From positions 73,922-137,921 of the forward strand of contig CAWJWZ010000001.1 of NCBI GenBank assembly GCA_963846705.1: a DNA stretch of 64,000 nucleotides. The letters run 5' to 3'. This DNA comes from an uncultured bacterium (GTDB taxonomy: Bacteria; Babelota; Babeliae; Babelales; Babelaceae). The notes beneath the pieces are model-generated. The model saw only the letters and a program-made list of their open reading frames with translations, was not told where the DNA came from and made no database searches. Positions within the stretch are counted from its first letter, which is position 1; each line of letters begins with the position of its first letter. Both the position numbers and the translations under genes were made by a program. Shown piece by piece: positions 2,706 to 46,460 of the stretch.

Positions 2706-2845
2706 AAATACGATAGAAAGCAAAAAGCATCAACGACGATATAGAATCCTTTTACGCATTAAGTAACAAAAGGTATTGAATTTATTAGCATAAATATATT
2801 ACATTATAAAATAAAATAACAATAAATTATAACCAAGTAATAATC

Positions 2846-5669: not shown

Positions 5670-5759
5670 AGACAAACATTCTATATTTTTAGTGTCTTTA
5701 ATTAACCTATAAATATATTGAATTGGTCTTAGAAAATATAATAAAATTATACAAAAGAG

Positions 5760-6755
5760 TTGATAGTTATTCAAAAAGGATACATAACAGTGAAAACTAA
5801 TACCAAGGTTACCATAGGTATTTTTTTAAGAATACTACTATCTTCTCTATTGCTTAATTCTCAAGACACTACACTAGTAAATAATTTAAGCATGCTTACG
5901 ATAAGTGTACAAAATCTTAGTAGCTTATTAAAGCCAGACCCAGGTATTACACTCAGTGATCAAGAAGCTAAAATTCTTGCAAATAAAATAGTTTTTTTTG
6001 GCTTCTATACACCAACAATTATTACTCATAGCATTATATCTTTAGTAAGAAATAATACGTTTATTATCCAAAATGTTACAGCTACTGGTGAGCCTTTTCC
6101 TACTGATTTTCAAGTATCACTACGAACACCAAATGAGATAAATGGATTTTTATTACCCTTACTTAGCCAACAATATCCAGTTAACTCTCATACTACCAGC
6201 TTTGATACATTAAACAATACTCAAAAAATTCAGATTCTCGTTAATCTTATAGTCCCACAAACTATTACTATTCATGAAAAAGGAAAAAGAAAAACAATAC
6301 CAAGCACGATTCCTGCAATGCTTAATGCTTCTGCTCTTACAGAACAATTAAGAGAAAAAATGAGGAATTTAGGACAGTTTCATCAGCGGTATCCGGAACC
6401 CGTACCTACACCATTGTCTGTTAAGGCTGTGATTATAGTAAATTCAGAGCTGATATTTATCAAACTTTACTTTATGGGCATATTATCAAGTATAGCTACA
6501 GTACAGCTTACACTATTTCAGGATATTCTTAAGCGTTCTGAAATATTTTCTGCTTTAAGCAATATAGCATCTCTTCCTGCTTTCGATTATACGCTTACTG
6601 ATCAAGAACATGCGCTATTAAGTGCAATGCTTAATCAAGTAGTTCAAAATTATGTAATCAGTAAGTTTCCTAAAACTGAAGAATGGCAAGAATATGGCCT
6701 CGAATTACAGAAGCAACTTCGTGAAGCTTTAGATAAGTCTCGCACAAGATCATAA
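5760..6755 (+). CDS. Paralogue 5 of tandem family (start uncertain)
   Basis: 331 aa as listed. The true start is probably the GTG near 5790, preceded by aaaagga. N-terminus LLNSQDTTLVNNLSML, core SELIFIKLYFMGILSS, C-terminus YVISKFPKTEEWQEYGLELQKQLREALDKS. Confidence 0.7.
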   Translation: MIVIQKGYITVKTNTKVTIGIFLRILLSSLLLNSQDTTLVNNLSMLTISVQNLSSLLKPDPGITLSDQEAKILANKIVFFGFYTPTIITHSIISLVRNNTFIIQNVTATGEPFPTDFQVSLRTPNEINGFLLPLLSQQYPVNSHTTSFDTLNNTQKIQILVNLIVPQTITIHEKGKRKTIPSTIPAMLNASALTEQLREKMRNLGQFHQRYPEPVPTPLSVKAVIIVNSELIFIKLYFMGILSSIATVQLTLFQDILKRSEIFSALSNIASLPAFDYTLTDQEHALLSAMLNQVVQNYVISKFPKTEEWQEYGLELQKQLREALDKSRTRS

Positions 6756-18659: not shown

Positions 18660-20687
18660 ATGAAAAAGCTAATAAGTAGCCTTATTTACTTTTTCCTCAC
18701 TGTTATTATCTACGGTATGGATAATACACAAGAAGTAAACATATATATCACTCCTCAAGAACGTTTTATACAGGCTGCAAAAAATGGTGATAGAGCTACA
18801 TTAGCTTATTTATTAGAGTATCATGCTCAAGATATCGCTATTAATGCCCCAGATTCTGAAAACGGTCTTACTGCCTTTACTCACGCTGCAATAAATAACC
18901 ACGTAGATGTTATGCAGCTATTAATAGATTACGGCTATGATCTTACTATAAAAGATAACAGTAATAGATCAGGCTATATGCATCTTTTTGCATTTGACAA
19001 TTTTGTTTCTTATATCAATCAGCATAATTGCTTACATGATCTTATACAACAACAGGGAGCTGATATTTTTGTATATGCGAGCCAAAAGGGTGCATTTAAG
19101 CATTTTTTGAGTTTATTACGCTATGGTATTAGTCCTTTTACTACATTTAATAGTGAAGGCCTGACTGCCTTACATGGTGCAGCACAAGGAAACCAAAAAG
19201 CAATAGCGCGCTTACTTCTTGAAAAATATAAGATTAAACCAACTCTACCTTCAAAAGATATGCGTTGTCCTCATCATATAGCAGCATTATACGGAAGCCG
19301 TGAAGTTTTTGATTATCTTATTCAATTTTTAACGCTAGAAGAATTATATTATGCAGAACTAAAGTATGGCACTATACTCCATAATGCTATTGTAGGTGAT
19401 CACCCTACTATGGTTACTTATCTTATAAACGAATTTCCCTTTTTACTCACTATAAAAAATAATTTTGATATGAGCCCTCTTGGCATCGCCGTCTTATATA
19501 ACCGAGAAGATATTGTGCACTTGTTAATTGATCAGTTTAATGTTAATCCTTATGAAGACGAATATGATGGAATACCACTTATACATGTTGCTGCAGCAAA
19601 AGGATACCGTAATCTGGTACAATATTTTATTGAAACAGTAGGCATGGACCCCCTTATAGAAAACACAAAATATAAGAATGCACTCTATTATGCGGCAGCT
19701 TATGGTAGACTTGAGGTGTTACGCTATTTTCTTGAAGAGCTTAGCTATGACCCTTTTTTAACAACACAAACCACTGGTGAAACTTTACTACAGGCAGCAA
19801 TGATAGTGAGCGATTTGCCAGATATAATACATTATCTTATACAGCAGCATAATCTTGATAGTAATATGCCGGATAAAAATGGCAATACGCCATTGGCATA
19901 TGCTGCATATAACGGTCGATATGCCAGCATGCGAGTATTAGTAGAAAGACATAAAGCAAAAATTGATACAACTGATAATCAGCTAACTACACCGCTTATG
20001 CATGCAATTGCTAGAAATCACGTATCAATAGCCCGTTATCTAATTGAACATGCAGGAGCTGATATACATCATAGAGACATGAATGGTAATAGTGTTGTGC
20101 ATCTTGCAGGTAAGCATGAAGCAATGCTCTCATATATACTGTCTCAAAGAAACAAAAAGATAGATATTAATGTTAAAAATAACGTGCATAATACTCCTTT
20201 ACATATAGTAGCGTATGACGTTCAAGGAAATAAGCAAGTAAAAATGCTTTTACAAGCGGGAGCTCAACCAAATAGCACTAATATGTATAATTTAACACCT
20301 TTTCATTATGCAGCTAATAATTCTATACACGCGCTTCTTAAGCAATTTAGTAAATATAGGTCTAAATTATTTAAAGCGTATTATCAGAAATCTTTAATAA
20401 AACTTGCCTACTTGGCACGTAAAATTACGTGTAACATACAAAATCATAATGGTGATACTCTATTACATCTAGCTATTACTGCGAGTCAAGAAGATACTAA
20501 AAACTATGAACAATATGTAAAAATCGCTCAATTTTTACTTACTCTTAATCAAGAATTAGCTTCAGTAAAAAATAATCAGGGTATAACACCTGTTTATCAA
20601 ACAGTTATACAGCATGAACTCACTATGTTAAAACTCTTAACGCAAGCTGCATGTGCTCAAAAAGACACTAATACTCTCTTACCATAA
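18660..20687 (+). CDS. Signal-peptide ankyrin-repeat protein
   Basis: 675 aa. N-terminal leader LISSLIYFFLTVIIYGMDN. More than 12 ANK units (G.T.LH.AA..G). A clean hairpin terminator (18514-18540) lies just upstream, after mnmG. Confidence 0.85.
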   Translation: MKKLISSLIYFFLTVIIYGMDNTQEVNIYITPQERFIQAAKNGDRATLAYLLEYHAQDIAINAPDSENGLTAFTHAAINNHVDVMQLLIDYGYDLTIKDNSNRSGYMHLFAFDNFVSYINQHNCLHDLIQQQGADIFVYASQKGAFKHFLSLLRYGISPFTTFNSEGLTALHGAAQGNQKAIARLLLEKYKIKPTLPSKDMRCPHHIAALYGSREVFDYLIQFLTLEELYYAELKYGTILHNAIVGDHPTMVTYLINEFPFLLTIKNNFDMSPLGIAVLYNREDIVHLLIDQFNVNPYEDEYDGIPLIHVAAAKGYRNLVQYFIETVGMDPLIENTKYKNALYYAAAYGRLEVLRYFLEELSYDPFLTTQTTGETLLQAAMIVSDLPDIIHYLIQQHNLDSNMPDKNGNTPLAYAAYNGRYASMRVLVERHKAKIDTTDNQLTTPLMHAIARNHVSIARYLIEHAGADIHHRDMNGNSVVHLAGKHEAMLSYILSQRNKKIDINVKNNVHNTPLHIVAYDVQGNKQVKMLLQAGAQPNSTNMYNLTPFHYAANNSIHALLKQFSKYRSKLFKAYYQKSLIKLAYLARKITCNIQNHNGDTLLHLAITASQEDTKNYEQYVKIAQFLLTLNQELASVKNNQGITPVYQTVIQHELTMLKLLTQAACAQKDTNTLLP

Positions 20688-27213: not shown

Positions 27214-29199
27214 GTGAACACTTTACTACGTGGTATACTACTATTTTTAGTAAGCATATATAGTTTGCCGGCGTATGCTAATAATCAAGCTATTTTAATT
27301 ATCGATACGCATGAACATACAAACTATCGTGTACATACGCTTCAGACACTACTAAAAACAGCAGGTTTTTCACCTTCTTACTGTTCTTTATATATGCTTT
27401 CTCAAGAAGACCTTACTACGTATCAAGCAATATTATTATTGCTTGATACGCAGTTCTTAGAGCACGGCCAGCACCCTATTATACAGCAACTATGTACCCA
27501 ATTATCTCAGTTTGCTCAAGAACCTCAGAAAGTAGTTGGCATTTTTATGCCGTCAGGCAATACACCAGGTAATGTATATAATCTTTTTATACAGTTTTTA
27601 GATACTCTTTCACCTACATTATGGCACACTATAACTACTTCTTCTGATTTGCTTGTACAGACAGTACAACTTCTTGCAACTCCTGATATATATTACAGTT
27701 GGTGTTACGATACAGCACTTCTTGCACAACGCAGTCCTTATCAAAAACTTACTGAGCGTGCCTATGCTTTACTTCAACTGCGTGGTGCACAGGGAGAAAA
27801 GGTATACTCTAAAATACTACCAAGCTGTACTATATACCATAATCACAGCTTTTTTCCTTTTGCTCTTATAGTAGAGCATCCATATACACATACCTATTTT
27901 TTATTAAGCAGGCAAAGTTTTTTTACACATAGTGAAATTCAAGAAGATTTTTGGCTACATCCATTAGATACTTATTTACAACAAGAATTTCTTACTACTG
28001 CCCTTCATATACTTCATGAACTGTATTATATAGGCGCACAAAAAACGCTGTGCCCAGTAGTACCTGAAGCACCACGAGTACTTGAAAGTACACCTACTAT
28101 TAAACAGAATACTCAGCCACCTATCTTCTGTGGATGGCTTGAATTAGATCCTATGGTTAGTTCAGCACAGAACGTGCAAGTAGGTATGGAAGCTCTATAT
28201 AAAGCAGGTCTTACTATGCTCTGGCTACAAGCTCGTCCTGAGCTCTATCTCAGCTCTCATGCTCAATGGGCAAACAAACAAGAAGAGTTTTTTACTCAGC
28301 TTGCGCAATTTACTTCTGGTTTACAGCACTATAAGCCAGCACAAACGACAGTACCTGATCTATTTATAGGCATAGAACTTACGGGAAATTTCAGTACAAC
28401 ACCTGTACCTATCTGCGCACAAGATATATATGGCGTATCATATACTAAAATACCAGCACCACTTGATAGAGAACATTTTTGGCAACCTGAAGTATTTGCT
28501 GTATTAGACACGTTTATTAAACGTTGGCCTGAGATAAGTAACGATATACCTATAGGTGGTATTATGTTTGACTTTGAAATGTACCATGCGCAAGACCAAA
28601 CTACGCTCTATACAAGCTATATGGATTTTAGTGATCACTCCTGGCAGCTGTATATACACTACACCAAACAAGCAGAACTTAATCAGCTTGCTACCGTGCA
28701 AGAGAGAGTATTATACTTATACCAGCACAAATTGCTTGATGCTTATTTTGCTATTCTACAAAACGCAGCATGCAATCTTGGTAATGACTTAAGGCTCTTT
28801 ATTAAACAGCGTTTGCCTGGGTGCCGTATAGGAGCATATCTTCCTACGCTTCCGCTATCTTGGTTTTATACAGGAATCTTAGCAGGGCTCAGTACACCTG
28901 AAGAACCCATTATTTTAGCTACGTTTAATACCCATTTTTATCACCATAAACCATGGCTCGAAAAAAATACTATATATGCGTACCATCTTGGAGTACTATT
29001 ACTTTCAAAATTACGCACCCCTGATGATTTTAACTTAATTTCTACTATACGTGCTCATCATGATGGTATTTGGTATAATCGGTTTTCCCGTTTGGTACAG
29101 TCTCGAAACCCAATTAACTGGGAATGGGATTATGGCCTTGAAGTTACCCCTTTAGATACCGCTACTGTTACAGCAGCTATGTGTACTTACCAGCAATAA
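27214..29199 (+). CDS. Large signal-peptide hypothetical protein
   Basis: 661 aa. Signal peptide LLFLVSIYSLPAYANNQA. No motif I recognise. Starts 4 nt after the corC stop. Confidence 0.6.
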   Translation: MNTLLRGILLFLVSIYSLPAYANNQAILIIDTHEHTNYRVHTLQTLLKTAGFSPSYCSLYMLSQEDLTTYQAILLLLDTQFLEHGQHPIIQQLCTQLSQFAQEPQKVVGIFMPSGNTPGNVYNLFIQFLDTLSPTLWHTITTSSDLLVQTVQLLATPDIYYSWCYDTALLAQRSPYQKLTERAYALLQLRGAQGEKVYSKILPSCTIYHNHSFFPFALIVEHPYTHTYFLLSRQSFFTHSEIQEDFWLHPLDTYLQQEFLTTALHILHELYYIGAQKTLCPVVPEAPRVLESTPTIKQNTQPPIFCGWLELDPMVSSAQNVQVGMEALYKAGLTMLWLQARPELYLSSHAQWANKQEEFFTQLAQFTSGLQHYKPAQTTVPDLFIGIELTGNFSTTPVPICAQDIYGVSYTKIPAPLDREHFWQPEVFAVLDTFIKRWPEISNDIPIGGIMFDFEMYHAQDQTTLYTSYMDFSDHSWQLYIHYTKQAELNQLATVQERVLYLYQHKLLDAYFAILQNAACNLGNDLRLFIKQRLPGCRIGAYLPTLPLSWFYTGILAGLSTPEEPIILATFNTHFYHHKPWLEKNTIYAYHLGVLLLSKLRTPDDFNLISTIRAHHDGIWYNRFSRLVQSRNPINWEWDYGLEVTPLDTATVTAAMCTYQQ

Positions 29200-29202
29200 A
29201 TT

Positions 29203-29628
29203 TTAACGGGTCCGTCGTGCCGCCGGTGTAGCTGGTGTACGTCTTGTCTCTGTTGGACGTTGCATAGTAGAAAGTGCTCTCATAATATTTTGACGAGTAG
29301 CTAGTGGCTGTTGCTTAGCCTCAGTATGTGCTCGTTGCAAATATTGACGCGCATGCTTCATTTGATAGGTATCTTCACCATAGCCTTTACGTTGAAAGCA
29401 ATCTACTATCTCTTGCCAAAAGTGTATACGTTCTTCAGCTGTACCTGCAGCTTGACCATAATAGCGTTGTCCTCTTTCAGGACTACCAGTTACCGACTCA
29501 CTCTCATATCCAAGCCATTTGCCAATTTGACGTAACGACCCTTGTATGCCTCCTTCATCTTGCATAGCATGCACCGACTGTGCAAAAATACCAATTACAA
29601 GTAAAGTAGAAATAATAAGCTTCTTCAT
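29203..29628 (-). CDS. Small exported protein with Arg/Thr/Pro-rich C-terminal tail
   Basis: 141 aa. Signal peptide LIISTLLVIGIFAQSVHA. The C-terminal RRTPATPAARRTR tail is encoded by a locally GC-rich patch. Confidence 0.5.
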   Translation of the reverse strand: MKKLIISTLLVIGIFAQSVHAMQDEGGIQGSLRQIGKWLGYESESVTGSPERGQRYYGQAAGTAEERIHFWQEIVDCFQRKGYGEDTYQMKHARQYLQRAHTEAKQQPLATRQNIMRALSTMQRPTETRRTPATPAARRTR

Positions 29629-29724: not shown

Positions 29725-30363
29725 TTAATTAAACACTTCACCCATACTTACAGTAAATAAGAGCAGCTCTTTAGTATCTTCGTTGAGTACACGTATAGTA
29801 AAATCTGGACGTAAATCTGCAGCCTTAATAAAAATAAACTTATCTACCCTGGCATAGGGTGCGATATCAAGGGTATCAGTACCATGTAACGAATTACGAC
29901 GTATATAGTGAGTAATCTTTTTGTTATTTTTGCTCATAGCATATCCAGTTGGTGCAATAACCACAGGAATTAATTGCCAGAAAAAAAGTAACGCAGGCCA
30001 GGATGCCGTAAGAACATAGAGCGAAGTATTATAATGCAACAGTTTTGAAATTTTTTGTGGTGATGCAAGAGAAGTATTTATATAGCTTGGGCGAATAGTA
30101 TAACAATAGGCAGATGTGTTTACAAAAGAAAGATGTACAGGATAGTAATCAGAAGCAGGCAAATCAACACCAAAATATTCTTTACTTTGATGCGATAATA
30201 AAACCTCATAGCTAAATATAAGATTGTCACGTACATGCTGCACTGTTCTATCTGAGGATAATGCAGGACAATGTTTTAAATTAGTTGGTTTTTTGCTGCA
30301 GCTGGCTAATAAAATTATACTAAAAATACTAAAATAGGTTAAAATACGCAGTATATGCTTCAC
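29725..30363 (-). CDS. Putative lipoprotein, unknown function
   Basis: 212 aa. Lipobox-like LLASCSKK after a hydrophobic leader. Confidence 0.5.
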   Translation of the reverse strand: MKHILRILTYFSIFSIILLASCSKKPTNLKHCPALSSDRTVQHVRDNLIFSYEVLLSHQSKEYFGVDLPASDYYPVHLSFVNTSAYCYTIRPSYINTSLASPQKISKLLHYNTSLYVLTASWPALLFFWQLIPVVIAPTGYAMSKNNKKITHYIRRNSLHGTDTLDIAPYARVDKFIFIKAADLRPDFTIRVLNEDTKELLLFTVSMGEVFN

Positions 30364-30484
30364 AAGAAGAATTCCCCACTAGTTGTATGTGCATATCTTA
30401 AATTTTTGCATTTTCTATATTCTGCTTTAAAATAACGTATAAACTCGTAATGGTCAAATTGCAAAAAATATAAGGCTCTTTTCT

Positions 30485-31504
30485 ATGGTTAAAAACTCTA
30501 CCATATATATAGTAAGTATTATACTATGCTGTACTATTTCTTCTCTTTCTGGTTTATTTTTTGAGCTGCTGAGCGAAATAGAAACAATTACAACAGTACT
30601 TACGAAAATAAATGAGCGTAATCGCACCGAATTAATTAATTTTGTTAAAGAAAAAGCAAGAAATTCTTCACAAAATATTTTTACCACAGATATACAAAAT
30701 ATATTGGCATTTCCAACAAAAGGTAATATATTTCAGCAAGATTTTCCTGAGCTTGCAGGACAATTACCGCAAGACGTTACAGAAATAGTAGAATTTTTAG
30801 AAAATCCTGCACGCTTTACCAACTTAGGCGCTCGTATGCCTAAAGGGATACTACTTGTAGGTCCCCCCGGTACCGGCAAAACTACACTTGCTCGCTATAT
30901 AGCAAACACCGCACGCGCTAGTTTTTTTAGCGCTTCAGCATCTCAGTTTATTCAAGAATATGTTGGTGTTGGTCCTAAACGTATCCGTGAATTATTTGAT
31001 GAAGCACGCCAATCAATTAAAAATGGACCCTATAAAGCATCTATACTATTTATTGATGAAATAGACGCTATTGGTAATGCTCGTGATCCCTTTACTAATA
31101 CCGAATACCGTAACACTCTTAACGAACTACTTAACCAAATGGATGGCTTTCATCAAGATCCAACTATTGTAGTTATAGCTGCTACAAATAATCACAAACT
31201 ATTAGATCCTGCCCTTACTCGTCCTGGTAGATTTGACCGCATAGTAAAAGTAACGTTACCCAGTTACAAAGACCGTAAAGAAATTTTAGAACACTATACT
31301 GCCTATCTTAAAATAAATATTCATGAGTATCCTATTGATTTTGATTTTTTAGCAACAAAAACAGAGGGATATAGCGGCGCTGAGCTTAAAAATCTTGTTA
31401 ACGAAGCAGCCATCCGTGCAGCACGAGAAAAAGCTGCTTGGGTACAGCAAAAACATTTTGTTACTGCATTACACGATATTACTATCAAACGCAGCAACAA
31501 ATAA
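30485..31504 (+). CDS. Membrane-anchored single-domain classical AAA ATPase (FtsH/Msp1-ATAD1-like AAA core, no protease domain)
   Basis: 339 aa. N-terminal TM helix. Walker A GPPGTGKT, Walker B ILFIDEID, second region of homology ATNNHKLLDPALTRPGRFDRIV. Confidence 0.85.
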   Translation: MVKNSTIYIVSIILCCTISSLSGLFFELLSEIETITTVLTKINERNRTELINFVKEKARNSSQNIFTTDIQNILAFPTKGNIFQQDFPELAGQLPQDVTEIVEFLENPARFTNLGARMPKGILLVGPPGTGKTTLARYIANTARASFFSASASQFIQEYVGVGPKRIRELFDEARQSIKNGPYKASILFIDEIDAIGNARDPFTNTEYRNTLNELLNQMDGFHQDPTIVVIAATNNHKLLDPALTRPGRFDRIVKVTLPSYKDRKEILEHYTAYLKINIHEYPIDFDFLATKTEGYSGAELKNLVNEAAIRAAREKAAWVQQKHFVTALHDITIKRSNK

Positions 31505-31510
31505 TAGTAT

Positions 31511-32491
31511 CTAGTTATTATTATGCTTAAAAACTTGTTGCATTGAAGCAAAAATACCCATTAACGAGCTCATTTCATACGGCACTATAATAAGCTTATT
31601 GTCTTTACCTTCAGTTAATTGCGGTAATGCTTTAATATATTGCATAGTAATAAGATATGCCGCAGGATCATTATGTGGCATGGCAGCTTTAACAAACTCA
31701 ATAGCACGAGATTCAGCTTCGGCAACTTTAAGACGCGCTTCTGCTTCACTTTGTGCGTTAATAACCCGAGACTCTGCTATACCACGTGCCGTAAGTATAT
31801 TAGCTTCACGCTCACCTTCAGCTTGTAAAATAGCAGCACGCTTCTGTCCTTCTGCTTCTAAAATCACTGCACGACGATCGCGCTCTGCACGCATTTGCTT
31901 TTCCATAGCGTGACGTATATCAGCAGGAGGATTTACTTCTTGTAATTCAACTCTGTTCACTTTAACGCCCCACTTGTCCGCTGCTTCATCAAGAATAATA
32001 CGTAATTTAGTATTTACTTTATCGCGTGATACTAGTGTTTCATCAAGATCCATAGAACCTATTACGTTACGCAGTGTTGTCTGTGCAAGTTTTTCAAGTG
32101 CCTCTGGTAAATTAGCAACAGCATATATTGCTGCTTTAGGATCAATAATTTGATAGTATAATAATGCACTAATTTCCATAGTCACGTTATCACGAGTAAT
32201 AACATTTTGTTTAGGAAACTCGTAAGCTGCTTCCCGTAAATCAATACGCTCAGTAGTTTTTATATACTTATAATATTTTTTATTCTCTATTTCTTTAAAG
32301 TATGTCCATGCATTTGCCCGTGGTGAATCGATAAATGGCACGACTATATGTAACCCTGGAGTAAGCACACGATCAAATTTACCAAAACGTTCTATAATTA
32401 CTGCTTCCGCTTGACGTACCAAAAATAACGACCGTACTATAATAATACTGCTAAGTACTAAACATACTATAATAAATATAAGTGTTACCAT
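31511..32491 (-). CDS. SPFH/band-7 (stomatin/prohibitin-like) membrane protein
   Basis: 326 aa. N-terminal TM helix. SPFH core plus an Ala/Glu-rich coiled coil (AERDRRAVILEAEGQKRAAILQAEGEREA). Contains a ~40-aa insert (SPRANAWTYFKEIENKKYYKYIK...). Confidence 0.85.
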   Translation of the reverse strand: MVTLIFIIVCLVLSSIIIVRSLFLVRQAEAVIIERFGKFDRVLTPGLHIVVPFIDSPRANAWTYFKEIENKKYYKYIKTTERIDLREAAYEFPKQNVITRDNVTMEISALLYYQIIDPKAAIYAVANLPEALEKLAQTTLRNVIGSMDLDETLVSRDKVNTKLRIILDEAADKWGVKVNRVELQEVNPPADIRHAMEKQMRAERDRRAVILEAEGQKRAAILQAEGEREANILTARGIAESRVINAQSEAEARLKVAEAESRAIEFVKAAMPHNDPAAYLITMQYIKALPQLTEGKDNKLIIVPYEMSSLMGIFASMQQVFKHNNN

Positions 32492-33320: not shown

Positions 33321-34055
33321 ATGCATATTATTAACATTTTTATACCTGGCACGCTGCCACCAAACTTTATTATGAAAATATCTGTTGTTCATAGATTTCT
33401 CTATTGCCTGCCTGGTCTTACATTAGCCCGTAATCTTGGGCCTGAATATCATATGAACAAAATAGCGCGTACTCTTGCACAACAAGATGCCCAGCGCTTT
33501 CCTCTAGATACTTTTTATCTTTTCGGTTGGTCAGGTGCTTTAAATTTTAAAGCACGACAACAAGCTGCAGATAGCTTGTATAGCCACATTAAGCACTTAG
33601 TAAAAAGTTTTGCAGAGACACCATATATTCGTATTATTACTCATAGTCACGGTGGCAATGTTGCATTAAATCTTGCACGTAGCTATCCTGAACTAGAACT
33701 ATTTACTATTAACGAGCTGATTCTATTAGGGTGTCCCGTACAAGAAGCTACACGTGATTTTGTTAATGCCCCTCTTTTTGGTAAAATTTATTCGTTTCAC
33801 TCGCATATTGACCTTATCCAAGTATTAGATCCTCAAGGACTTTCGCAGGCGAGTACTTCTTTTTTTTCTCATCGCCATTTTCCCTTCACGTCAAGAGTAC
33901 TACAGGTCAATCTTACACTTAATAAGCGCAATCTATTTCATCTTGAATTCTTAATGCTGAAATTTTTTACCCTTTTACCTCAAGCACTTACTATTCTTGA
34001 AACTCAGTATTATCATCATGTTGCAAGAGATATTTATATTAATATAACGCGCTAG
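33321..34055 (+). CDS. Putative alpha/beta-hydrolase (lipase/esterase-like); nucleophile elbow THSHGG
   Basis: 244 aa. IRIITHSHGGNVALNLA fits a GxSxG-type elbow with Ser replaced by His at the x position. Downstream Asp/His candidates present. The 3' end overlaps the convergent delta-60 gene by 4 nt. Confidence 0.45.
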   Translation: MHIINIFIPGTLPPNFIMKISVVHRFLYCLPGLTLARNLGPEYHMNKIARTLAQQDAQRFPLDTFYLFGWSGALNFKARQQAADSLYSHIKHLVKSFAETPYIRIITHSHGGNVALNLARSYPELELFTINELILLGCPVQEATRDFVNAPLFGKIYSFHSHIDLIQVLDPQGLSQASTSFFSHRHFPFTSRVLQVNLTLNKRNLFHLEFLMLKFFTLLPQALTILETQYYHHVARDIYINITR

Positions 34056-35536
34056 AATTTCCAGGCACACAGTGGACATGATGCACTTACACATACGTCA
34101 CAAATACATGTACGTTCTTGCATAAACCCATGAGAAGCATCTTCAATACACGTACCAGTTATAGAATTTACCAGTTGTTTAATAGGAGTACTAATATTTT
34201 TCGGTGTTCCCCAATAGCATGCTATAGCAAAACCACTTTTCTTACGATTACGTGTATTTTGTGCGCTTCCGATTGCTAAAATATTACCTGACTGCTGAAT
34301 TTGTAGTGAACGTATTTCAGCAGATATATTATTAAATTCACTGAGCACTTTACCATATTCTCCAAATGAATAATCAAGTGTACCGTCTTCCTTATAACGT
34401 GCGAGAGCAAAACATCGCTCTTTAGTATCTTCATTTTTTACTGCAAAACCACCTAAGAGTATTTTGCCATCTTCTTGTATAACTAATGAGAAAGCTCCTT
34501 CTTCAAGCCCGGTAAAATCAGTTAGAGCTTTTCCCTCCTTGCCAAAGCTAGTATCTATACTCCCATCTTTGTTATAACGCACTAGAGCGAAATTAGTACT
34601 TATAGATTCATCGCTTCGCTGCGCGATACCTCCTACTACTACTTTACCATCCTTTTGTAGAGCGATATCATGGCCAACTGCTTTGAATCCCCGTATATCA
34701 GTAATAACTTTTCCATTAATACCAAATGACTCATCGAGTTTTCCCTGAGGAGTATACCGTACGAGTGCAAATCGTATATCGTTAGGAGTATAGCCTATTG
34801 TTGCAAAGCCTGTTACAATAATTTTTCCATCAGGCTGAAGTGCAATTTGTTGTATACCATCACAAAACCCAAAAAATTCAGTAATTATTTTACCTTTTTT
34901 GCCAAAAGATTCGTCAAGAGTACCATTAGAGTTAAGACGTGCGAGCGCAAAATTTTGTTCCCCTGTTTTAGGCTGTACTGCAGACCCAGCAACTAGTATT
35001 TTCCCATTAGACTGTATTGCTAAACAAGTGGCAGTATCTTTATGGCTAAAAAAATTTACGAACGATTTACCTGCCTGTCCAAACTCTTGATCAAGAGATC
35101 CATTACGGTTATAACGTGTTATAGCAAATATACAGGTACTCATTTCTTGACTTGGTGTAGCACAACCTGCTACTACTAGTTTTCCATCCTTTTGTTCTTT
35201 TACTGCACACGCTTGAGCACTATAATGGGGAAATTGAGTAATTACTCTACCATGTTGTCCAAATGTATGGTCAAGCACACCTTTTTTAAGATATCGTGCA
35301 ATAGCAAATGCCTGCTCAATAGGGTTATCTTTATATGTAGTGGAACCAACGACAATTAATTTATCATCATTTTGCAATGTAGCAGCTAAAGCCTGACCGT
35401 TCCAACCAAAAAAATCGGTAACGACAAATCCTTGCTGCCCAAACTTTGCATCTAAACTCCCTTCTCGAACAGTTTCAACTTCAGCATACAAGCGTAAAAA
35501 CAAAAAGATAATAGTAATAATAAAACTCTTTTTCAT
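34052..35536 (-). CDS. Signal-peptide protein with seven ~60-aa delta-60-type repeats (predicted beta-propeller) and Cys-rich C-terminus
   Basis: 494 aa. Repeats DAKFGQQGFVVTDF / DHTFGQHGRVITQF / DQEFGQAGKSFVNFF / DESFGKKGKIITEFF / DESFGINGKVITDI / DTSFGKEGKALTDF / DYSFGEYGKVLSEF at about 60-aa spacing. C-terminal tail TCICDVCVSASCPLCAWKF. Confidence 0.65.
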   Translation of the reverse strand: MKKSFIITIIFLFLRLYAEVETVREGSLDAKFGQQGFVVTDFFGWNGQALAATLQNDDKLIVVGSTTYKDNPIEQAFAIARYLKKGVLDHTFGQHGRVITQFPHYSAQACAVKEQKDGKLVVAGCATPSQEMSTCIFAITRYNRNGSLDQEFGQAGKSFVNFFSHKDTATCLAIQSNGKILVAGSAVQPKTGEQNFALARLNSNGTLDESFGKKGKIITEFFGFCDGIQQIALQPDGKIIVTGFATIGYTPNDIRFALVRYTPQGKLDESFGINGKVITDIRGFKAVGHDIALQKDGKVVVGGIAQRSDESISTNFALVRYNKDGSIDTSFGKEGKALTDFTGLEEGAFSLVIQEDGKILLGGFAVKNEDTKERCFALARYKEDGTLDYSFGEYGKVLSEFNNISAEIRSLQIQQSGNILAIGSAQNTRNRKKSGFAIACYWGTPKNISTPIKQLVNSITGTCIEDASHGFMQERTCICDVCVSASCPLCAWKF

Positions 35537-37612: not shown

Positions 37613-38863
37613 ATGAAAAAATATATACGAGACATATTAGTGCTGTATTATACAATAGCTCTTTGTATTACCATATACTCTATGGATAATACAAAGACTT
37701 CTAGCACACCTCCTCCATTCTCTATGCTTGAAATAACTCCCTATACACCTAGTCACTTAACTGAGGCTGGTCCATCTTCGAGAAAACGACAGGACTCACA
37801 TAAACGAAATGTATGCGTGCTGTTGAATAACAACAGAAAGATATATCCAAATCCTTCAATTCTTCATCTCTTTAAAATACTGCGCTCTCCTTCTCAACAG
37901 GAGATAGAGATCAAACTACCTATGGCAAATAGCAAACAAGCTCACGTACTTTTTAATCTTGTTAAAAGTGCACTCCAGCAAACTGACCAGTCACTTGAGA
38001 ATATATATACACGAATAATACAGGAGTTGCTTACTTATAATATTGATCAGGTTCTCATTCTTTTGCGTACCGCCCACGCTCTTGGCATTATAGAGGATAA
38101 TAAAATTACTTTAGCACTTAGTGCAGCACTTATTACTCGGTATACACATCTTAACCCTAATATTTCATATCGTATTGGGGCAAATATTCAGCCATATCTT
38201 AACCCTAATGCTGAGTTTTTACCAGAAAAGCATACTGACAATGAAAAAGATATTTATTTTATACAAAAAGTAGCACGACACTATAAAAATAGTACCGGTA
38301 CTTCATTACCTCTTAGAGTTGGTACTATTAATCAGCAACTTATTGAAGGAAAACAATTTACTATCACTGATAATACCCTTTCATTACACACTCAAGAATA
38401 TGAAGATATTAGAGGGATTCACAATATCACTAATATCAATACTGTTACTAAAATTGACCTATCGTATAATAGATTAATACATTTACCTGTTGAATTAGGA
38501 GAATTAGTCACTGTACAAGATCTTGATCTCTCGTATAACTATATCACTAGACTTATTTGTCCTGTATTTGCGCTTAAGAACTTAATTAGGCTTAATCTAC
38601 ATATGAATCAACTTACTGAACTATCTCATGAAATTAAAGAACTTAGCAACTTAACAGAGCTTAACCTGTCTATGAATAAGCTTGAAAGACTACCTCTTGA
38701 GCTTATCTTTTTAACTAGATTGCAAAAACTTTTTATTTCTGACAACCCCTTTAATCCTGATGAAGCAACAATAATTACACGTATAACTGAAAGTCTCAAC
38801 CGCCAAGGATGTACCACGTTTAATTTAGAAGCTAAACAATTGACCCCTCATACCCCTTCTTAA
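37613..38863 (+). CDS. Signal-peptide leucine-rich-repeat protein, eukaryote-like
   Basis: 416 aa. C-terminal LRR array (IDLSYNRLIHLPVELGELVTVQDLDLSYNYITRL...LNLHMNQLTELSHEIKELSNLTELNLSMNKLERLPLEL). Confidence 0.75.
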   Translation: MKKYIRDILVLYYTIALCITIYSMDNTKTSSTPPPFSMLEITPYTPSHLTEAGPSSRKRQDSHKRNVCVLLNNNRKIYPNPSILHLFKILRSPSQQEIEIKLPMANSKQAHVLFNLVKSALQQTDQSLENIYTRIIQELLTYNIDQVLILLRTAHALGIIEDNKITLALSAALITRYTHLNPNISYRIGANIQPYLNPNAEFLPEKHTDNEKDIYFIQKVARHYKNSTGTSLPLRVGTINQQLIEGKQFTITDNTLSLHTQEYEDIRGIHNITNINTVTKIDLSYNRLIHLPVELGELVTVQDLDLSYNYITRLICPVFALKNLIRLNLHMNQLTELSHEIKELSNLTELNLSMNKLERLPLELIFLTRLQKLFISDNPFNPDEATIITRITESLNRQGCTTFNLEAKQLTPHTPS

Positions 38864-40907: not shown

Positions 40908-43900
40908 TTAAATTTGAGAATATTTACATATTTTTTCAAAAATCTGATGAAGTTCTATTATCTTTTGTTGGTAAGGTATTTGATATACCAGTGCTATTAT
41001 AATCCTTTGCAAATAAGAGTCTACACTCTCAATAGCTTCTTTTAATTCAGAGCAGGTATATTCACCGGTCTTACTAATGCCACCATTTTTAATTACTTTA
41101 GTAATACACATTACTGCTTCTCGGCAAAGAGTTACGATTTCTTCAGAGTATACTCCTGCATTTACTTTGCACAATCCTTCTTCTACTGCCAAACGTGCTT
41201 TAAGGCAAAGCGCGGGCATATTCTCCTTCAGTTGTTCAAGGCCATCAAAACGAGTACGAGCCATCTCATACGTATCTTTACTTTTTCCTTTATACGCACA
41301 ATTATAAAACCAGCGAGCTATAAGATGCCATTTACGCTGTTTAAAAACAGTACTATTATCGAGACTAATAAGTGTCTCGATAATACTCAGCCTTTTTGCT
41401 TCATCTACAAGCATTGATTCTCCATCTTGATCATTACTATGCTCAACAAACTTGATTAATTGTTGAAAATAATTAAGCGCTTGATCAGGCGATTGGTGAA
41501 CACCTAATCCTTCGGCATACATCTTTATTAAATACAGCAATGCCATCTTTGCATCTTTATCTACTGCTTCCTGAAAGTACCCGTATGCTTCTTTATATCT
41601 ATTTTGATCATACAGTAATACACCAAGACCAAATGCTACCTCAGGCAAATGTGCACTATAAGCTTTTTTCAAAAAATGGAAAGCTTTATTTGTAGATTTT
41701 TGTAGTCCATTACCCCCTCTTGCATACCAGCATCCTAATACACGGCATGCATCTGGCTCATTTTGCTCGGCAGCCTGAATAATATAAGCTAACGCCTGCT
41801 TGAAATTAGGAGAAATAACATCAGCATGCCCATTATAATATAACATTCCTACTATAGATTGAGCCTCAGAATCACCTTGATTCGCTAATTGTTTTAAAAG
41901 CTGAAATCCATAAAGAATACCTTCTTTACCAGTATGCTCTGTCCCTTTTTCTTTCAGATATAAGTCTGCAAGTTCTCTCTGAGCAAGCTTATAATTACGT
42001 GCTACAAGCTCCTTATATATATTTTCTGCTTGATTATATTGATGGTTGTCTTTGTAGATACCTGCTAGATTATACTCTGTTGATAATACATATGGTAAAG
42101 CTTCTTTATATCCCTGTTTTGCTGCCTTTTTAAAACACTGTATCGCTTTTTGAAAACTAGTAATTTGGTCAAATGGATTACCTATTACCATAGATCCAGC
42201 CTGAGCACGCTTTAATAACGATACACCTAAAATATAGAGTAACTCTGGATCGCTCTCTTCTTTATCAGCATGTTCTAGAAATGCAGGATAACAGTCTGAT
42301 ACCATAACTAAATTGGTTATTTCAGGATTACTACTAACGTTCTCACTACTAAATTCTGCCTGCTTAAAGAATTTTTTTGCCTCTTGAAGTGCTTTAGCAG
42401 TACCTAATTTACAAAAATGGGCTGCCAAATAATACGAAGACATACTATGCCCTGCTTGGGCTAATTTTCGCAAACCTTGTATAGCTATAGTAGTATCGGT
42501 TATTTCTACACCAATTTCTTTCATAACAGCACAAGCTTTAGCAAAGCAACTATGTGCTATTTCAGCAGAGTACGCAACTCCTTTGCCGGTAAGGTACAGA
42601 GTACCTAAAAAACACAATGCTAGAACATGTTCTTTATTAATTGCTTGAGTAAAATACGAAAGTGCATCTTCATATCGCTGATAATGATAAGCAATTTTAC
42701 CAAGTTTATAGAGTGTTTCACCATCTCCGTTTTGCACGTTATCTTTATAATGCTGTTGAGCTTCCTCAAGAGAATTAAAACATATTTCATCACCTATTTC
42801 TTGTAAAAATTTTATTGCTTCAGTATCTTCTTGAGCTGCCGCTTTACGTAAATATTCAAGAGCTTTAGAACGATTTTGAGCAATAGTACCTCCACATACT
42901 AATGGTACTTGTTCTCCATGCCAATACGCATTTCCCAATACTGATTGCGCTGTAATATCATTATTATCTGCCGCTTGTGTAAGCAATGCTAAAGCTTTTT
43001 CTACCGCATCTTGACCATGCAATTCTTCACAACCTTTCAAATAAAGTAATCCAAGCACGCAACACGCCTGAGGATGATTCTTATTATAATATAATGCATT
43101 ATGTGCATACTTATGTGCTTGGGTCATATCTTGCTGTTGAAAAAAATAATAATACGCTAAACCTGCTGCTAGCTCACTCTGATCATTTTTTTTAAGTTCT
43201 TGACCTAACTTTTCAGCTTTTTTAAAATAGTCAAAACCTTTTTGTAATTCCACGACGTTACTGGCTGTAATGATATTTTTACCGGAAGTAGAACGATATG
43301 TATGCAGACAACCTAATAGATAACAAGCTCGAACATGTCTATTACGTGCTAATTGTTCAGCAATAGCATATGCTCCTGAAGAATATACTAAATCTTTTAC
43401 ACTATCTTTATTAGATACGTTCTCTTGAAATAGTTTTTCAGCATGTTCAAAGTAATCAAGTGCCATATCTATTTCACTATTTTGAGCAAGTATGCAAACA
43501 ACTTTATAACAAGCAGGTAAATATTGTAATTCACTCAATTGTTTAAGTCCTTCAAGCGCAAGAGTATAAGCGCGTTCATTAGCCGTTTCAAGTTTACACT
43601 GTTTTTGCGAACATGCTTTAACAAAATAAGAGAACGCTTTTTCAAAAACCTCCTCGTTGTGTTCTTGTGCTAAATAATGCATACCAAGATAAATCGAAGC
43701 ATACGTGTTGCCTTGGTGTGATGCTTGAAGAATACAGTCAAGCGCTTTCTGTGTATCAGGCTCTATAATTCCCCTAATACCTTTTTCTAAAGCTAATGCT
43801 AGACAATAGAGCGCATAACCGTTACCCTCTTGAGCCTGTCGCTCAAGCGAGTATATAGAGTTGCGAAAAAGCAAAAGCTCTGCAGTATCGCCATGTATAG

Positions 43901-46460
43901 TATTTATTTTTTTAGCTTCTTCTAAAAGACGGCTTTCTATATCAAGCACGGTGATAAAGTTTTCAGCATCAATCTTTTGACTAGCACTATGCATAAGCAA
44001 ACATAATGCTCTGAATGTATATGGTCCATTTTCCTGTATTGCTTTGTCAATATATTTTTGAGCATGATTAAGACGCTCATGTACTGTCTTATAGCTACTA
44101 TACAGATATATTGCTTTTCCTAAATAATAATTAAGTTCAGAATCACCAGTAGTTGCAGCAAGATTTTCACTAAAAGCATATACAGCCGTGGTAGTATACA
44201 TGTGCCATACATCAGAGCTTGATATTAGTTTTAATAGCGTACAACATAGTGCTATTTGTTGTTTAGGTTCTAGCTGCTGTATAAACTGTTTAGAGCATAC
44301 TTTAAGTAGTTGTTCTGGGTTAATACGCATAAACAGTGCTAATACTTCACTATTATTAATATAGTCAGGATAGCTTTTAAAAAAACTAAAAATATGTGTA
44401 CTTAAACATATTTTTAGTAATGCTTGTTCTGCTGTAGAAACTCCCTGTAAAGCTGCGTGCACAAGACATTTATAAGCGCGGGCATATAAGTTTACCTGCT
44501 CTTTCATGTATATTTCAGCAAGTATCAGTAAAATCTCAGGATGCGTTGTATATGCACGCTGCTCAAAATTCTCAAAAATGTTCGATAACCGCTCAAAGTT
44601 TTCCTGCATACTCTTGGTTGCTTGTTCTAACGCTGTTTTTATATGGGAAAGTGACATATCTGTACTATCAAACATATAGAAATCTAAAAGATCATACGCG
44701 GCTTGTACGTGGCCACACTCAACTGCTTTATTTAGATAGAACGGCGCTTTCTCATCTCGTAATGCAAGATCTTTTTCATTGCGGTAAATACATACCCCAA
44801 CGATATAATTAAGTTCAGAATTATTAGATATCTGTGCAAGCTCTTCTAATAATTGCACTACGCGCTCATTACATAGTTGACGCCAAAGGTTAGAGCTCAA
44901 CTTTTGTTTGAGCGGCTGCATAACTGTTAAGACTTTAGTATAATTTTTACTTTCTTTGGCTTGATACGCATAATACTTAATCATCCAAGCGATTGCTTTA
45001 ACATATCCATCTTCAGCAAGCGTTGCAATGCCATCTAACGCCTGATCATACTCAGCAGATGTATCCTTTAAGAAGTTACGGTAATAATAAAATGCGTTTT
45101 CATAGTCTTTTTTATAGTAAAATAATTTGCCAAGCCATATATTTGCCTCATTACACTGCTTAACTGCTTTATTTAAAGCAACTTGTGCTTTTTTTTCAGA
45201 CGACATATTCCACTTATTGCTCAATGCCACATACCACATTTTACCTACAGCTAAAGCAGCTACAGTATCATTATCTTGGTCCATTGCTCTGTGTAATATA
45301 ACAGGTATTTGAGCATCTTTAAGTTGATCAAACAGTTCTTTAGAGGGATTATCTATAAATAACTGTACTGCCAACTTTGCCCATTGCTGTGCTGCATTGT
45401 ATGATCTATCAATAGCGTATAAACCAGTATAAAAAAGCTGTGCTAAAAAACAGCGTGCTGAAATATTTTTATAAGTAAGTGCTAAAGATATAATTTTCTG
45501 AAGTGCCGTATTTTGAAGTACACAATCATAAGAATATACCCATGGATCCTTTACTAACTGAGAAAAACAAGCAAATGCTCTGTCTAAACTCTGTGCATTC
45601 GTAGGATGCTGAAAGCATGCCATTCCATTATTTAAAAGAGCTTGGCGTTCCGACCACGCTGCCGCTTGTTTTATGTACTCAATATATGCATTCTCTGTAG
45701 CATCGCCATCTTCAAGAGTATAATCGGTATGAGCAACTTTTTTATAATACGTATATGCTTTAGCATAGTCACCCTGTATATAATAGAGCTGACCAAGAGC
45801 ATATAGCGCTTCAGGATCTCCACTTAAAGCAGCTAAAGTATATAATTGTTGAGCGCACTTTCTATTTTGTTCTGTTCCTATACCATCATGGCAAAGTTTA
45901 GCAAGAAGCTTTAATGCAGATAAATGGTAATAATCTTGGGTATATTCTTGATTCTTTCTATAAAAAGATAAACGATGCGGACCCACTGCATGATATGCAT
46001 AAAAATAGACTTGTTCTGGAAAGGATGCAGCATAGTTTTCTTGTTGAAACAATCTTAAAGCATACAAATAGTATGCTTCTGGGCTAACGTTAGGATGATA
46101 GAGCGCAGCTGATAAAATAGCGTCAGCATTTGCATGCTGTTGCTGTGCATACCATTTACTCAGCATAATTTGTGCTAGATGATTACGCGGTACCGCTTGT
46201 TCTAATAATGTTTGTCCCTGTAGTACTGTTTCGGGTCTGGAAAGCAAATAAGCAGCTCTAAAGCACAAATGTCGATCTTCAGAAGAATAAAATAATTGGT
46301 TAAATAAGCGCGTTGAAAAGCATGGCTTTGTTATATGTGTTCTAGGCGTTTTATTATCTAAGTGCATACTTATTATTGGTACAATGGCTATACCATGCAC
46401 TATAAAATACATACAACTAATAATACACTTTTGCATTATACTGCTTTCTTTAAGTACCAA
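40908..46460 (-). CDS. Giant Sel1/TPR-like repeat protein (1850 aa)
   Basis: Dozens of Sel1-type units (A...LG..Y..G.GV..D...A..W(F/Y).KAA..G...A). Hydrophobic N-terminal segment. Lies directly downstream of glk-pgi on the same strand. Confidence 0.8.
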   Translation of the reverse strand: MVLKESSIMQKCIISCMYFIVHGIAIVPIISMHLDNKTPRTHITKPCFSTRLFNQLFYSSEDRHLCFRAAYLLSRPETVLQGQTLLEQAVPRNHLAQIMLSKWYAQQQHANADAILSAALYHPNVSPEAYYLYALRLFQQENYAASFPEQVYFYAYHAVGPHRLSFYRKNQEYTQDYYHLSALKLLAKLCHDGIGTEQNRKCAQQLYTLAALSGDPEALYALGQLYYIQGDYAKAYTYYKKVAHTDYTLEDGDATENAYIEYIKQAAAWSERQALLNNGMACFQHPTNAQSLDRAFACFSQLVKDPWVYSYDCVLQNTALQKIISLALTYKNISARCFLAQLFYTGLYAIDRSYNAAQQWAKLAVQLFIDNPSKELFDQLKDAQIPVILHRAMDQDNDTVAALAVGKMWYVALSNKWNMSSEKKAQVALNKAVKQCNEANIWLGKLFYYKKDYENAFYYYRNFLKDTSAEYDQALDGIATLAEDGYVKAIAWMIKYYAYQAKESKNYTKVLTVMQPLKQKLSSNLWRQLCNERVVQLLEELAQISNNSELNYIVGVCIYRNEKDLALRDEKAPFYLNKAVECGHVQAAYDLLDFYMFDSTDMSLSHIKTALEQATKSMQENFERLSNIFENFEQRAYTTHPEILLILAEIYMKEQVNLYARAYKCLVHAALQGVSTAEQALLKICLSTHIFSFFKSYPDYINNSEVLALFMRINPEQLLKVCSKQFIQQLEPKQQIALCCTLLKLISSSDVWHMYTTTAVYAFSENLAATTGDSELNYYLGKAIYLYSSYKTVHERLNHAQKYIDKAIQENGPYTFRALCLLMHSASQKIDAENFITVLDIESRLLEEAKKINTIHGDTAELLLFRNSIYSLERQAQEGNGYALYCLALALEKGIRGIIEPDTQKALDCILQASHQGNTYASIYLGMHYLAQEHNEEVFEKAFSYFVKACSQKQCKLETANERAYTLALEGLKQLSELQYLPACYKVVCILAQNSEIDMALDYFEHAEKLFQENVSNKDSVKDLVYSSGAYAIAEQLARNRHVRACYLLGCLHTYRSTSGKNIITASNVVELQKGFDYFKKAEKLGQELKKNDQSELAAGLAYYYFFQQQDMTQAHKYAHNALYYNKNHPQACCVLGLLYLKGCEELHGQDAVEKALALLTQAADNNDITAQSVLGNAYWHGEQVPLVCGGTIAQNRSKALEYLRKAAAQEDTEAIKFLQEIGDEICFNSLEEAQQHYKDNVQNGDGETLYKLGKIAYHYQRYEDALSYFTQAINKEHVLALCFLGTLYLTGKGVAYSAEIAHSCFAKACAVMKEIGVEITDTTIAIQGLRKLAQAGHSMSSYYLAAHFCKLGTAKALQEAKKFFKQAEFSSENVSSNPEITNLVMVSDCYPAFLEHADKEESDPELLYILGVSLLKRAQAGSMVIGNPFDQITSFQKAIQCFKKAAKQGYKEALPYVLSTEYNLAGIYKDNHQYNQAENIYKELVARNYKLAQRELADLYLKEKGTEHTGKEGILYGFQLLKQLANQGDSEAQSIVGMLYYNGHADVISPNFKQALAYIIQAAEQNEPDACRVLGCWYARGGNGLQKSTNKAFHFLKKAYSAHLPEVAFGLGVLLYDQNRYKEAYGYFQEAVDKDAKMALLYLIKMYAEGLGVHQSPDQALNYFQQLIKFVEHSNDQDGESMLVDEAKRLSIIETLISLDNSTVFKQRKWHLIARWFYNCAYKGKSKDTYEMARTRFDGLEQLKENMPALCLKARLAVEEGLCKVNAGVYSEEIVTLCREAVMCITKVIKNGGISKTGEYTCSELKEAIESVDSYLQRIIIALVYQIPYQQKIIELHQIFEKICKYSQI

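Follow-up and report, generated by a model that had tools for sequence, protein, structure and literature searches.

An FtsH-derived AAA+ ATPase of Dependentiae without a protease domain, with an export-signal-like N-terminus and a divergent lipoprotein gene as its predicted partner

Background

Where does an AAA+ ATPase work whose motor is that of FtsH, whose protease domain is missing and whose N-terminus is laid out like an export signal? The question is raised by a single gene, at positions 30485-31504 (+) of a 64,000-nucleotide stretch of DNA from an uncultured bacterium of the Babelaceae (GenBank assembly GCA_963846705.1, contig CAWJWZ010000001.1, positions 73,922 to 137,921 of the forward strand). 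This whole stretch is called the window below. An initial annotation had seen in the gene product a membrane-anchored ATPase built like the eukaryotic extractases Msp1 and ATAD1, perhaps acting with the product of the adjacent SPFH gene. The bacterial periplasm is usually taken to be free of ATP and hence of AAA+ proteins. Dependentiae (TM6), on which the family described here appears to be centred, are intracellular parasites of protists. We have very little doubt that the gene belongs to a conserved, FtsH-derived family, distinct from Msp1, whose partner is a lipoprotein. That the ATPase is an exported unfoldase working with this envelope lipoprotein seems to us the best explanation overall, and we lean towards it by a little.

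Results

The gene and its domains

The open reading frame (ORF) at 30485-31504 is a real gene. It starts with ATG, has no in-frame start upstream, encodes 339 amino acid residues (aa) and has a GC content of 0.36, matching the rest of the window. Pfam AAA covers residues 122-257 of the product (E 3.6e-41) and AAA_lid_3 (PF17862) residues 284-325 (E 6e-13). All hallmarks of a classical AAA protein (PF00004 with PF17862) were found, namely Walker A and B, sensor 1, the arginine fingers of the second region of homology (SRH) and a four-helix lid, and a check of motif coordinates showed every catalytic motif to be intact. Walker A (GPPGTGKT) occupies residues 126-133 (30860-30883); the YVGVG of pore loop 1 lies at 30959-30973, with YVG as residues 159-161; Walker B (ILFIDEID) spans residues 187-194 (31043-31066); sensor 1 is at N235/236; and the SRH, ATNNHKLLDPALTRPGRFDRIV, holds arginines R246, R249 and R252 within RPGRFDR (residues 246-252, 31220-31240). 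All of them are read on the + strand.

The AlphaFold model of the protein has a predicted local distance difference test score (pLDDT) of 85.5. Hydropathy and the charge bias of the family delimit a Sec-signal-like N-terminus, MVKNSTIYIVSIILCCTISSLSG (residues 1-23, 30485..30553). It is followed by an amphipathic, heptad-patterned helix (residues 24-59, 30554..30661), placed by alignment, hydropathy and the model, and by a linker (residues 60-95, 30662..30769) that is variable in length and sequence among aligned family members and predicted to be disordered, with pLDDT below 50 at residues 64-85. The AAA large subdomain and lid fill the rest of the chain (residues 96-339, 30770..31504), as judged from motifs, Foldseek matches and a pLDDT of 80-98.

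Pfam detects neither a second AAA domain nor Peptidase_M41 in the protein, which stops after the AAA lid. A tblastn search of the whole 64-kb window with five FtsH protease domains returned only hits with E of at least 0.2 in unrelated places, so no M41 remnant was found there. An Rfam scan of the window gave no match. The initial annotation was right that a single classical-clade AAA domain with Walker A/B and SRH stands behind an N-terminal hydrophobic segment, that protease domain and second ring are both lacking, and that this is not a recently frameshifted FtsH, on which the tblastn result and about 100 homologues without a protease domain (see below) agree. It also gave the distance to the next gene, an intact convergent SPFH ORF, correctly as 6 nt. 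It was mistaken in letting the protein end about 40 aa after the SRH, since 85 residues follow and form a complete AAA lid domain.

An FtsH-type motor

The best NCBIfam match of the protein is FtsH_fam (TIGR01241, 294 bits), ahead of PAN (229), CDC48 (179) and CdvC/Vps4 (130). The alignment spans only positions 161-403 of the 598 in the TIGR01241 profile, that is its ATPase part, and the score remains under the curated cut-off of 600 bits. The highest-scoring single domains in a comparison with PDB sequences belong to the Yme1-type i-AAA ATPase 5ubv (229.6 bits) and to Thermus FtsH (211 bits). VAT and p97 head the PDB list only through the summing of two domains, with about 144 bits for each.

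For the phylogeny, 241 trimmed columns were used to build a neighbour-joining tree with 200 bootstraps. Fifteen canonical FtsH genes of unrelated bacteria, found through generic motifs (GPPGTGKT, FIDExD) of the family alignment, served as FtsH references. The others (human ATAD1 (8vxt), yeast Vps4, human spastin, yeast Yme1, the 5ubv i-AAA, and both D1 and D2 of yeast Cdc48 and of VAT) were checked residue by residue against PDB chains. Identity of the window protein over these columns amounts to 49-63% with other family members and 43-50% with FtsH and Yme1. The values drop to 33-39% for VAT, Cdc48, spastin and Vps4, and ATAD1, with 29%, is the lowest. The family, FtsH and Yme1 were split from ATAD1, Vps4, spastin, Cdc48 and VAT in 199 of the 200 bootstraps; ATAD1, Vps4 and spastin were grouped in 194/200. 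A clade of its own is recovered for the family, with one tandem-AAA relative included, in 186/200, and a grouping with Yme1 in 33/200 only.

Pore loop 1 of the window protein, QEYVGVGPKRIRELF (QEYVGVGP), has the signature of FtsH and Yme1; the corresponding stretch of ATAD1 is DKWYGESQ. When the AlphaFold model was submitted to Foldseek, the best matches were the i-AAA 5ubv, FtsH (2ce7, 1iy0) and AFG3L2, with FtsHi and PAN also present. No Msp1 or ATAD1 structure occurs among the top 50 Foldseek or the top 60 PDB sequence matches. Because profiles, identities, tree, pore loop and fold comparison all agree, we regard the 339-aa ATPase as FtsH-derived by sequence, carrying an FtsH-type motor and not being a relative of Msp1/ATAD1. 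The gene at 30485..31504 (+) is accordingly described here, from its ORF, its Pfam and TIGR01241 matches and the tree, as encoding a predicted protease-less AAA+ ATPase of the FtsH clade.

A conserved protease-less family

About 100 single-AAA proteins, 290-470 aa long and with 42-59% identity, were listed by the homologue search, and none of them has a protease domain. The named members come from Dependentiae/TM6, Babeliaceae and one metagenome-assembled genome of Amoebophilus; some are annotated in their sources as "cell division protease FtsH" or "FtsH 2". Going by these names, a Dependentiae genome is the most likely origin of the window. In the alignment they share two traits that FtsH lacks, the motif EYRNTLNELLNQMDGF (31103-31150, + in the window) and a 6-residue insertion before Walker B. 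A metagenome scan with the AAA family motif NTLNELLN retrieved only 9 loci, and a scan of viral contigs for the family motif was negative. Searches of the accessible literature found no paper on such a family. Judged by these sequences, the family is old and conserved, is centred on Dependentiae, and is no product of recent truncation.

Several relatives deviate in architecture. P0068 joins a signal peptide and ankyrin repeats to the same AAA module; P0002 and P0005 consist of a signal peptide and two tandem AAA domains, with no transmembrane (TM) segment at all; P0051 has a signal peptide, a long acidic region, a TM segment and the AAA domain. An ORF of 59 aa that weakly matches AAA_lid_3 (L097, 5302-5481) lies just 3' of P0088, one of the family genes, and is possibly the remnant of a duplicated copy.

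The N-terminus and its predicted topology

Residues ~5-26 of the window protein are hydrophobic (Kyte-Doolittle 19-mer mean up to 2.1), and the best N-terminal 12-mer has a mean Eisenberg hydrophobicity <H> of 0.80. Residues 1-23 comprise a positive n-region, a hydrophobic core of about 12 residues and a c-region of small residues, which read MVK, IYIVSIILCCTI and SSLSG; the helix then begins with LFFELLSEIE. The starts of family members are poorly conserved and positive (MKKTK, MRKLK, MLKK and the like), and a short hydrophobic core comes next. The c-regions are rich in P, G, N and T and often end in A-x-A (SCQA/F, ITNA/I, ATHA/I, NAQA/F, the slash marking the boundary to the helix). Of 73 members, 55 have a permissive (-3,-1) site where the helix begins, many of these sites being plain A-x-A.

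In the 54 members with one hydrophobic segment, the mean charge of the N-terminal flank is +2.1 and that of the 15 residues C-terminal of the segment -0.8; the N-terminal flank is the more positive one in 47 of them and the less positive one in 2. By the established positive-inside rule, a positive N-flank and an acidic C-flank indicate an N-in signal. The layout of the N-terminus is that of a Sec signal, which could either be cleaved off as a signal peptide or stay as an N-in signal anchor. The orientation that the sequences predict is N-in/C-out, opposite to that of Msp1, which is N-out with a cytosolic AAA domain. There is no stop-transfer segment, and therefore the AAA domain should be translocated. 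The relatives that combine a signal peptide with ankyrin repeats and AAA (P0068) or with tandem AAA domains (P0002, P0005) reinforce, at the level of predicted architecture, the idea of export.

The helix behind the signal is conserved (consensus aF[IL]LxLLxDI...L.E.N..NR, with N43 invariant in the family alignment). Across the family it has <H> of about 0.04, a hydrophobic moment (muH) of about 0.30 and 5-9 charged residues, and is amphipathic and heptad-patterned; for helix 24-59 of the window protein the values are <H> 0.02, muH 0.34 and 7 charged residues in 24. Residues 24-47 were considered as a second TM helix and rejected as too polar. An FtsH-type pair of TM helices flanking a periplasmic domain was not found in the window protein, where only one segment is hydrophobic.

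A divergent lipoprotein gene

Divergent to the AAA gene lies a gene for a 212-aa lipoprotein (29725..30363, -). Its lipobox LLASC, with Cys22, is encoded at 30298-30312 (-) and agrees with the pattern [LVI][ASTVI][GAS]C after a signal sequence. The cysteine is invariant in three alignments, and distant members have a lipobox too. The protein has no Pfam or PADLOC match. Its AlphaFold model (pLDDT 84) is an immunoglobulin-like beta-sandwich into which a helical hairpin (residues 113-159; 29887-30027, -) is inserted, and the first half of this hairpin is very hydrophobic. The 121-bp intergenic region between the two genes (30364..30484) holds one promoter-like site per strand (30405-30433 on + and 30457-30429 on -); such consensus matches are no more frequent there than in shuffled sequence, which makes them weak evidence.

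Scoring of the neighbourhoods of 13 non-redundant loci with profiles showed that in 11 of them a divergent gene of about 210 aa precedes the AAA gene, at a distance of 85-300 bp upstream. The two relatives with signal peptide plus TM segment that were examined have no upstream lipoprotein gene. On this evidence from gene order, we take the divergent lipoprotein gene, and not SPFH, to be the conserved partner of the AAA gene.

An exhaustive HMMER search yielded 869 lipoprotein representatives at 50% clustering; a word-indexed homologue search had found 2-9 relatives only, and the alignment contains no stretch conserved enough for a metagenome scan. The lipoproteins thus form a large unnamed family. 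Three of its distant members add to the picture of the gene neighbourhood. P0240 is again divergently paired with a gene whose product starts MFIVFKKSYFFISLTVSILSLSIAHA/VAPLKTLEKLNRK... (VAP...), followed by an FtsH-like AAA domain. P0280 (L101, 2061-4618) is divergent to a gene for a 572-aa HtrA/DegP-like protease with signal peptide, Trypsin_2 and PDZ, which stands in place of an AAA gene. The contig of P0260 is too short to inform on neighbours.

Next to the lipoprotein-AAA pair, locus L085 has a tandem array of ORFs (561-3129, -). Four of them are complete, encode 188-216 aa, have no Pfam match and show no homology to the lipoprotein; a fifth is cut by the end of the locus. P0174, a protein of 2657 aa with dozens of signal-peptide- or lipobox-like units, is similar to the lipoprotein profile in the N-terminal part of the latter only and is most likely an artefact of assembly or gene calling.

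The SPFH gene and the surroundings

The gene at 31511..32491 (-) encodes an SPFH/Band_7 protein of stomatin/HflK type (Pfam Band_7, 1e-42). It is convergent and intact, and its stop codon is separated from the end of the AAA gene by 6 nt (31505-31510). An SPFH gene occurs within 4 kb of the AAA gene in 3 of the 13 non-redundant loci, adjacent to it in the window and in L087 and 3.6 kb away in L083, and part of this co-occurrence is shared synteny. The N-terminal anchor of the SPFH protein has no positive charge before its TM segment and R20 and R26 after it. Because this pattern is opposite to that of the AAA protein, the SPFH domain is predicted to be cytoplasmic. SPFH is probably a neighbour and no dedicated partner.

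The SPFH genes of L083 (8113-9517) and L087 (5321-6316) are 58-61% identical to the window copy. In L083 an NfeD gene stands before it, as is usual for stomatin and NfeD, and the window copy has no adjacent NfeD. On the other side of the AAA gene, two signal-peptide ORFs without Pfam match (661 aa on +, 141 aa on -; 27214-29628) lie between corC and the lipoprotein gene. At the syntenic locus L098 the AAA gene directly follows corC; compared with that genome, the window seems to carry an insertion made up of the two ORFs together with the lipoprotein gene.

Farther away, five tandem paralogous ORFs (1782-6755, +) encode proteins of 307-331 aa with 27-44% pairwise identity. They have signal-peptide-like starts ending in ...AAQD or ...NSQD, the three that were scanned have no Pfam match, and they look like an expanded secreted family. 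The window also encodes a 1850-aa Sel1/TPR protein (40908-46460, -), a 675-aa ankyrin-repeat protein (18660-20687, +), a WD40 protein (12797-14896, +), an LRR protein (37613-38863, +) and a signal-peptide-bearing DUF5122 beta-propeller (34052-35536, -). Many of the repeat proteins near the AAA gene carry signal peptides, and the repertoire is typical of amoeba-associated bacteria.

Discussion

The picture of the initial annotation has to be redrawn in part. The resemblance to Msp1/ATAD1 holds for what can be counted, i.e. one AAA domain, 339 aa and no protease, and it fails in phylogeny and pore loop, while the charges flanking the hydrophobic segment predict the opposite orientation. What had been called an N-terminal TM helix is indeed hydrophobic, and the flanking charges and A-x-A-like sites of the family make it resemble a Sec signal sequence instead. 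The suggested cooperation with the SPFH scaffold looks weak, given its proximity in only 3/13 loci and the opposite charge pattern of its anchor. A role as effector or as quality-control factor is possible.

We suggest the following course of events. The ATPase would be exported by Sec through its N-terminal signal, with the AAA ring translocated across the inner membrane. The ring would be active on the envelope side, where the lipoprotein would tether or assist it; helix 24-59 might serve oligomerisation or dock on the hydrophobic hairpin of the lipoprotein. A hexameric ring could grip polypeptides with Tyr159 and use ATP to unfold or extract them without degradation. The ATP would come from the host. 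Because Dependentiae import host ATP, it must reach the periplasm anyway. Chromulinavorax imports host ATP, and 44% of its coding sequences carry signal sequences (10.1101/379388). Babela encodes AAA fusions with signal peptides whose secretion is predicted, and no system for secretion other than type II was detected in its genome (PMC4378268). We lean slightly towards an extracytoplasmic AAA domain. Within this preference, association with the envelope is conceivable and takes the larger part, and release to the host is rather unlikely. In its complete form, as a periplasmic or envelope AAA+ unfoldase that is exported by Sec, held by the lipoprotein as a tether and driven by ATP which diffuses from the host into the periplasm, the proposal is less likely than not. 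The exported unfoldase would possibly fill the place that belongs to an HtrA-type protease partner in the remote L101 lineage.

Several observations weigh against this interpretation. AAA+ ATPases need ATP, and to our knowledge no periplasmic AAA+ is known. The N-terminus was assessed heuristically, by charge statistics and a permissive (-3,-1) rule instead of a dedicated signal-peptide or topology predictor; the n-region of the window protein has a single Lys; and the AlphaFold model draws residues 5-59 as one continuous helix, which also fits an uncleaved anchor. The neighbour-joining tree is a simple one in which canonical FtsH is represented by bacteria other than Dependentiae. The pairing of P0280 with an HtrA-like protease hints at a link of the lipoprotein family to envelope proteostasis and is a single case. 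Above all, P0062, P0070, P0078, P0088 and P0051 have a signal peptide, a loop and a TM segment with positive flank, other relatives have 2-4 hydrophobic segments, and most of those with signal peptide plus TM or with 3-4 segments predict, from their sequences, a cytoplasmic AAA domain. One of them, P0062, is syntenic with the window gene (dnaG-rpoD-corC-AAA; RpoD 73%, CorC 58% and AAA domain 51% identical). Either a change of the N-terminal module between lineages brought a change of compartment with it, or the topology deduced for single-segment members is wrong. It is mainly this type of syntenic relative that keeps our confidence in export only slightly on the positive side.

The same relatives are the core of a different explanation, in which the ATPase is a protease-less FtsH paralogue anchored in the inner membrane and facing the cytoplasm, with a working topology like that of Msp1 or FtsH, where it extracts or unfolds membrane proteins or enters mixed rings with canonical FtsH, as plastid FtsHi does. 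FtsH ancestry, the confinement of ATP to the cytoplasm of ordinary bacteria, the single long N-terminal helix of the model and the SPFH genes near three loci would all fit it. The charge bias (47 vs 2) is nevertheless opposite to that of an N-out/C-in anchor; the hydrophobic cores are short, and c-regions rich in P, G and N come after them, as do A-x-A sites; a second TM segment is lacking, the next helix having 5-9 charged residues; and the exported lipoprotein tracks the single-segment type and is missing from the two signal-peptide-plus-TM relatives examined. We consider such a cytoplasm-facing paralogue a possibility of the second rank. A step beyond the envelope would be a fully secreted effector, exported by Sec, cleaved, and released by type II secretion or vesicles so as to remodel host proteins or membranes, with the lipoprotein as an export helper only. 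The signal-peptide layout, the ankyrin repeats joined to the AAA module in P0068, and the wealth of ankyrin, WD40, LRR and Sel1 proteins in the window speak for it, as do Babela's signal-peptide-bearing AAA fusions and its ankyrin proteins, for which secretion into the amoeba is predicted (PMC4378268). A strictly co-inherited lipoprotein would be unusual for a soluble effector, though; the ATPase has no host-targeting domain, its N-terminal helix is highly conserved and not fast-evolving, and literature searches gave no experimental secretome work on the family. We therefore hold the effector to be unlikely.

Horizontal transfer of a eukaryotic Msp1/ATAD1 gene would account for the similar size (339 vs ~360 aa) and for the arrangement in which one AAA domain follows an N-terminal hydrophobic segment. 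ATAD1 is, however, the most distant reference (29%) and is split from the family in 199/200 bootstraps, the pore loop is EYVGVG and not KWYGES, and neither Msp1 nor ATAD1 appears among the top 60 PDB or top 50 fold matches, which makes the transfer very improbable. A recently truncated or decaying FtsH pseudogene, as might be read from a best profile match that is FtsH in its AAA part only, is hardly credible: the catalytic motifs are intact, about 100 homologues of full length share this protease-less build and the family forms its own clade (186/200), no M41 remnant is left in the window, and the downstream space is filled by an intact convergent gene. Similarity to the anti-phage ATPases IetA (PADLOC, 140 bits) and IteA (NCBIfam, 121 bits) could suggest a role in defence, which we find just as far-fetched as a transfer of Msp1. 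Both scores are far under that of FtsH and represent generic AAA similarity, an IetS-type protease partner is missing, none of the four neighbour proteins scanned matches a PADLOC model, and the scan of viral contigs did not turn up the family motif.

If the ATPase is exported, it would represent either an exception to the rule of the ATP-free periplasm or a new class of secreted ATPase effectors; at work in the periplasm or envelope, it would be the first ATP-driven protein-remodelling machine on the outer side of a bacterial cytoplasmic membrane. Under the conservative reading, too, an uncharacterised two-gene module of protease-less FtsH-like motor and lipoprotein is widespread in Dependentiae, and the annotations of family members as "cell division protease FtsH" or "FtsH 2" are to be corrected.

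Among known systems, FtsH is the natural starting point. Its AAA module is 43-50% identical to that of the window protein, and both share the [FY]VGxG pore loop, the DGF inter-subunit motif and the RPGRFDR arginine fingers. The window ATPase differs in lacking the M41 zinc metalloprotease (HExxH) and the TM1-periplasmic domain-TM2 module, in having a single signal-like segment, the 6-residue insertion and the motif EYRNTLNELLNQMDGF, and in its separate clade (186/200). It should not be named FtsH, because it has neither the M41 domain nor the two-TM module and stays under the curated score. Yme1/YME1L is similar in its YVG pore loop and its single membrane-proximal N-terminal region, and 5ubv, at about 50% identity, is the best single-domain PDB match; Yme1, however, retains its protease domain, and the family groups with it in only 33/200 bootstraps. 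FtsHi and Ycf2 of plastids are likewise FtsH-derived pulling motors without proteolysis and give good structural matches (8xku, 8xks), but FtsHi keeps a degenerate M41 domain and an FtsH-like membrane topology, whereas the window ATPase has no protease domain.

Msp1/ATAD1 is a functional analogue only, as a non-proteolytic extractase of similar size with a single AAA ring and an N-terminal hydrophobic segment; it belongs to the meiotic clade (Vps4, katanin, spastin), has a KW/YYG pore loop and is anchored N-out/C-in. PAN/Rpt, the second-best profile family (229 bits), also places an N-terminal coiled-coil helix and a linker before a classical AAA domain. It falls into another clade, PAN has no signal sequence, and the window ATPase has no OB domain. 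The AAA-Ulp1 proteins of Babela massiliensis, which we can set beside the window family by description, are AAA ATPases of Dependentiae with predicted atypical signal peptides, read as secreted by their authors; they differ by a permuted Ulp1 peptidase domain and are reported to be specific to Babela (PMC4378268). What is new here compared with all of these, if true, is that a protease-less motor of FtsH descent is combined with an N-terminus of export type and has a lipoprotein as its dedicated partner; a ring outside the cytoplasm would be categorically more surprising.

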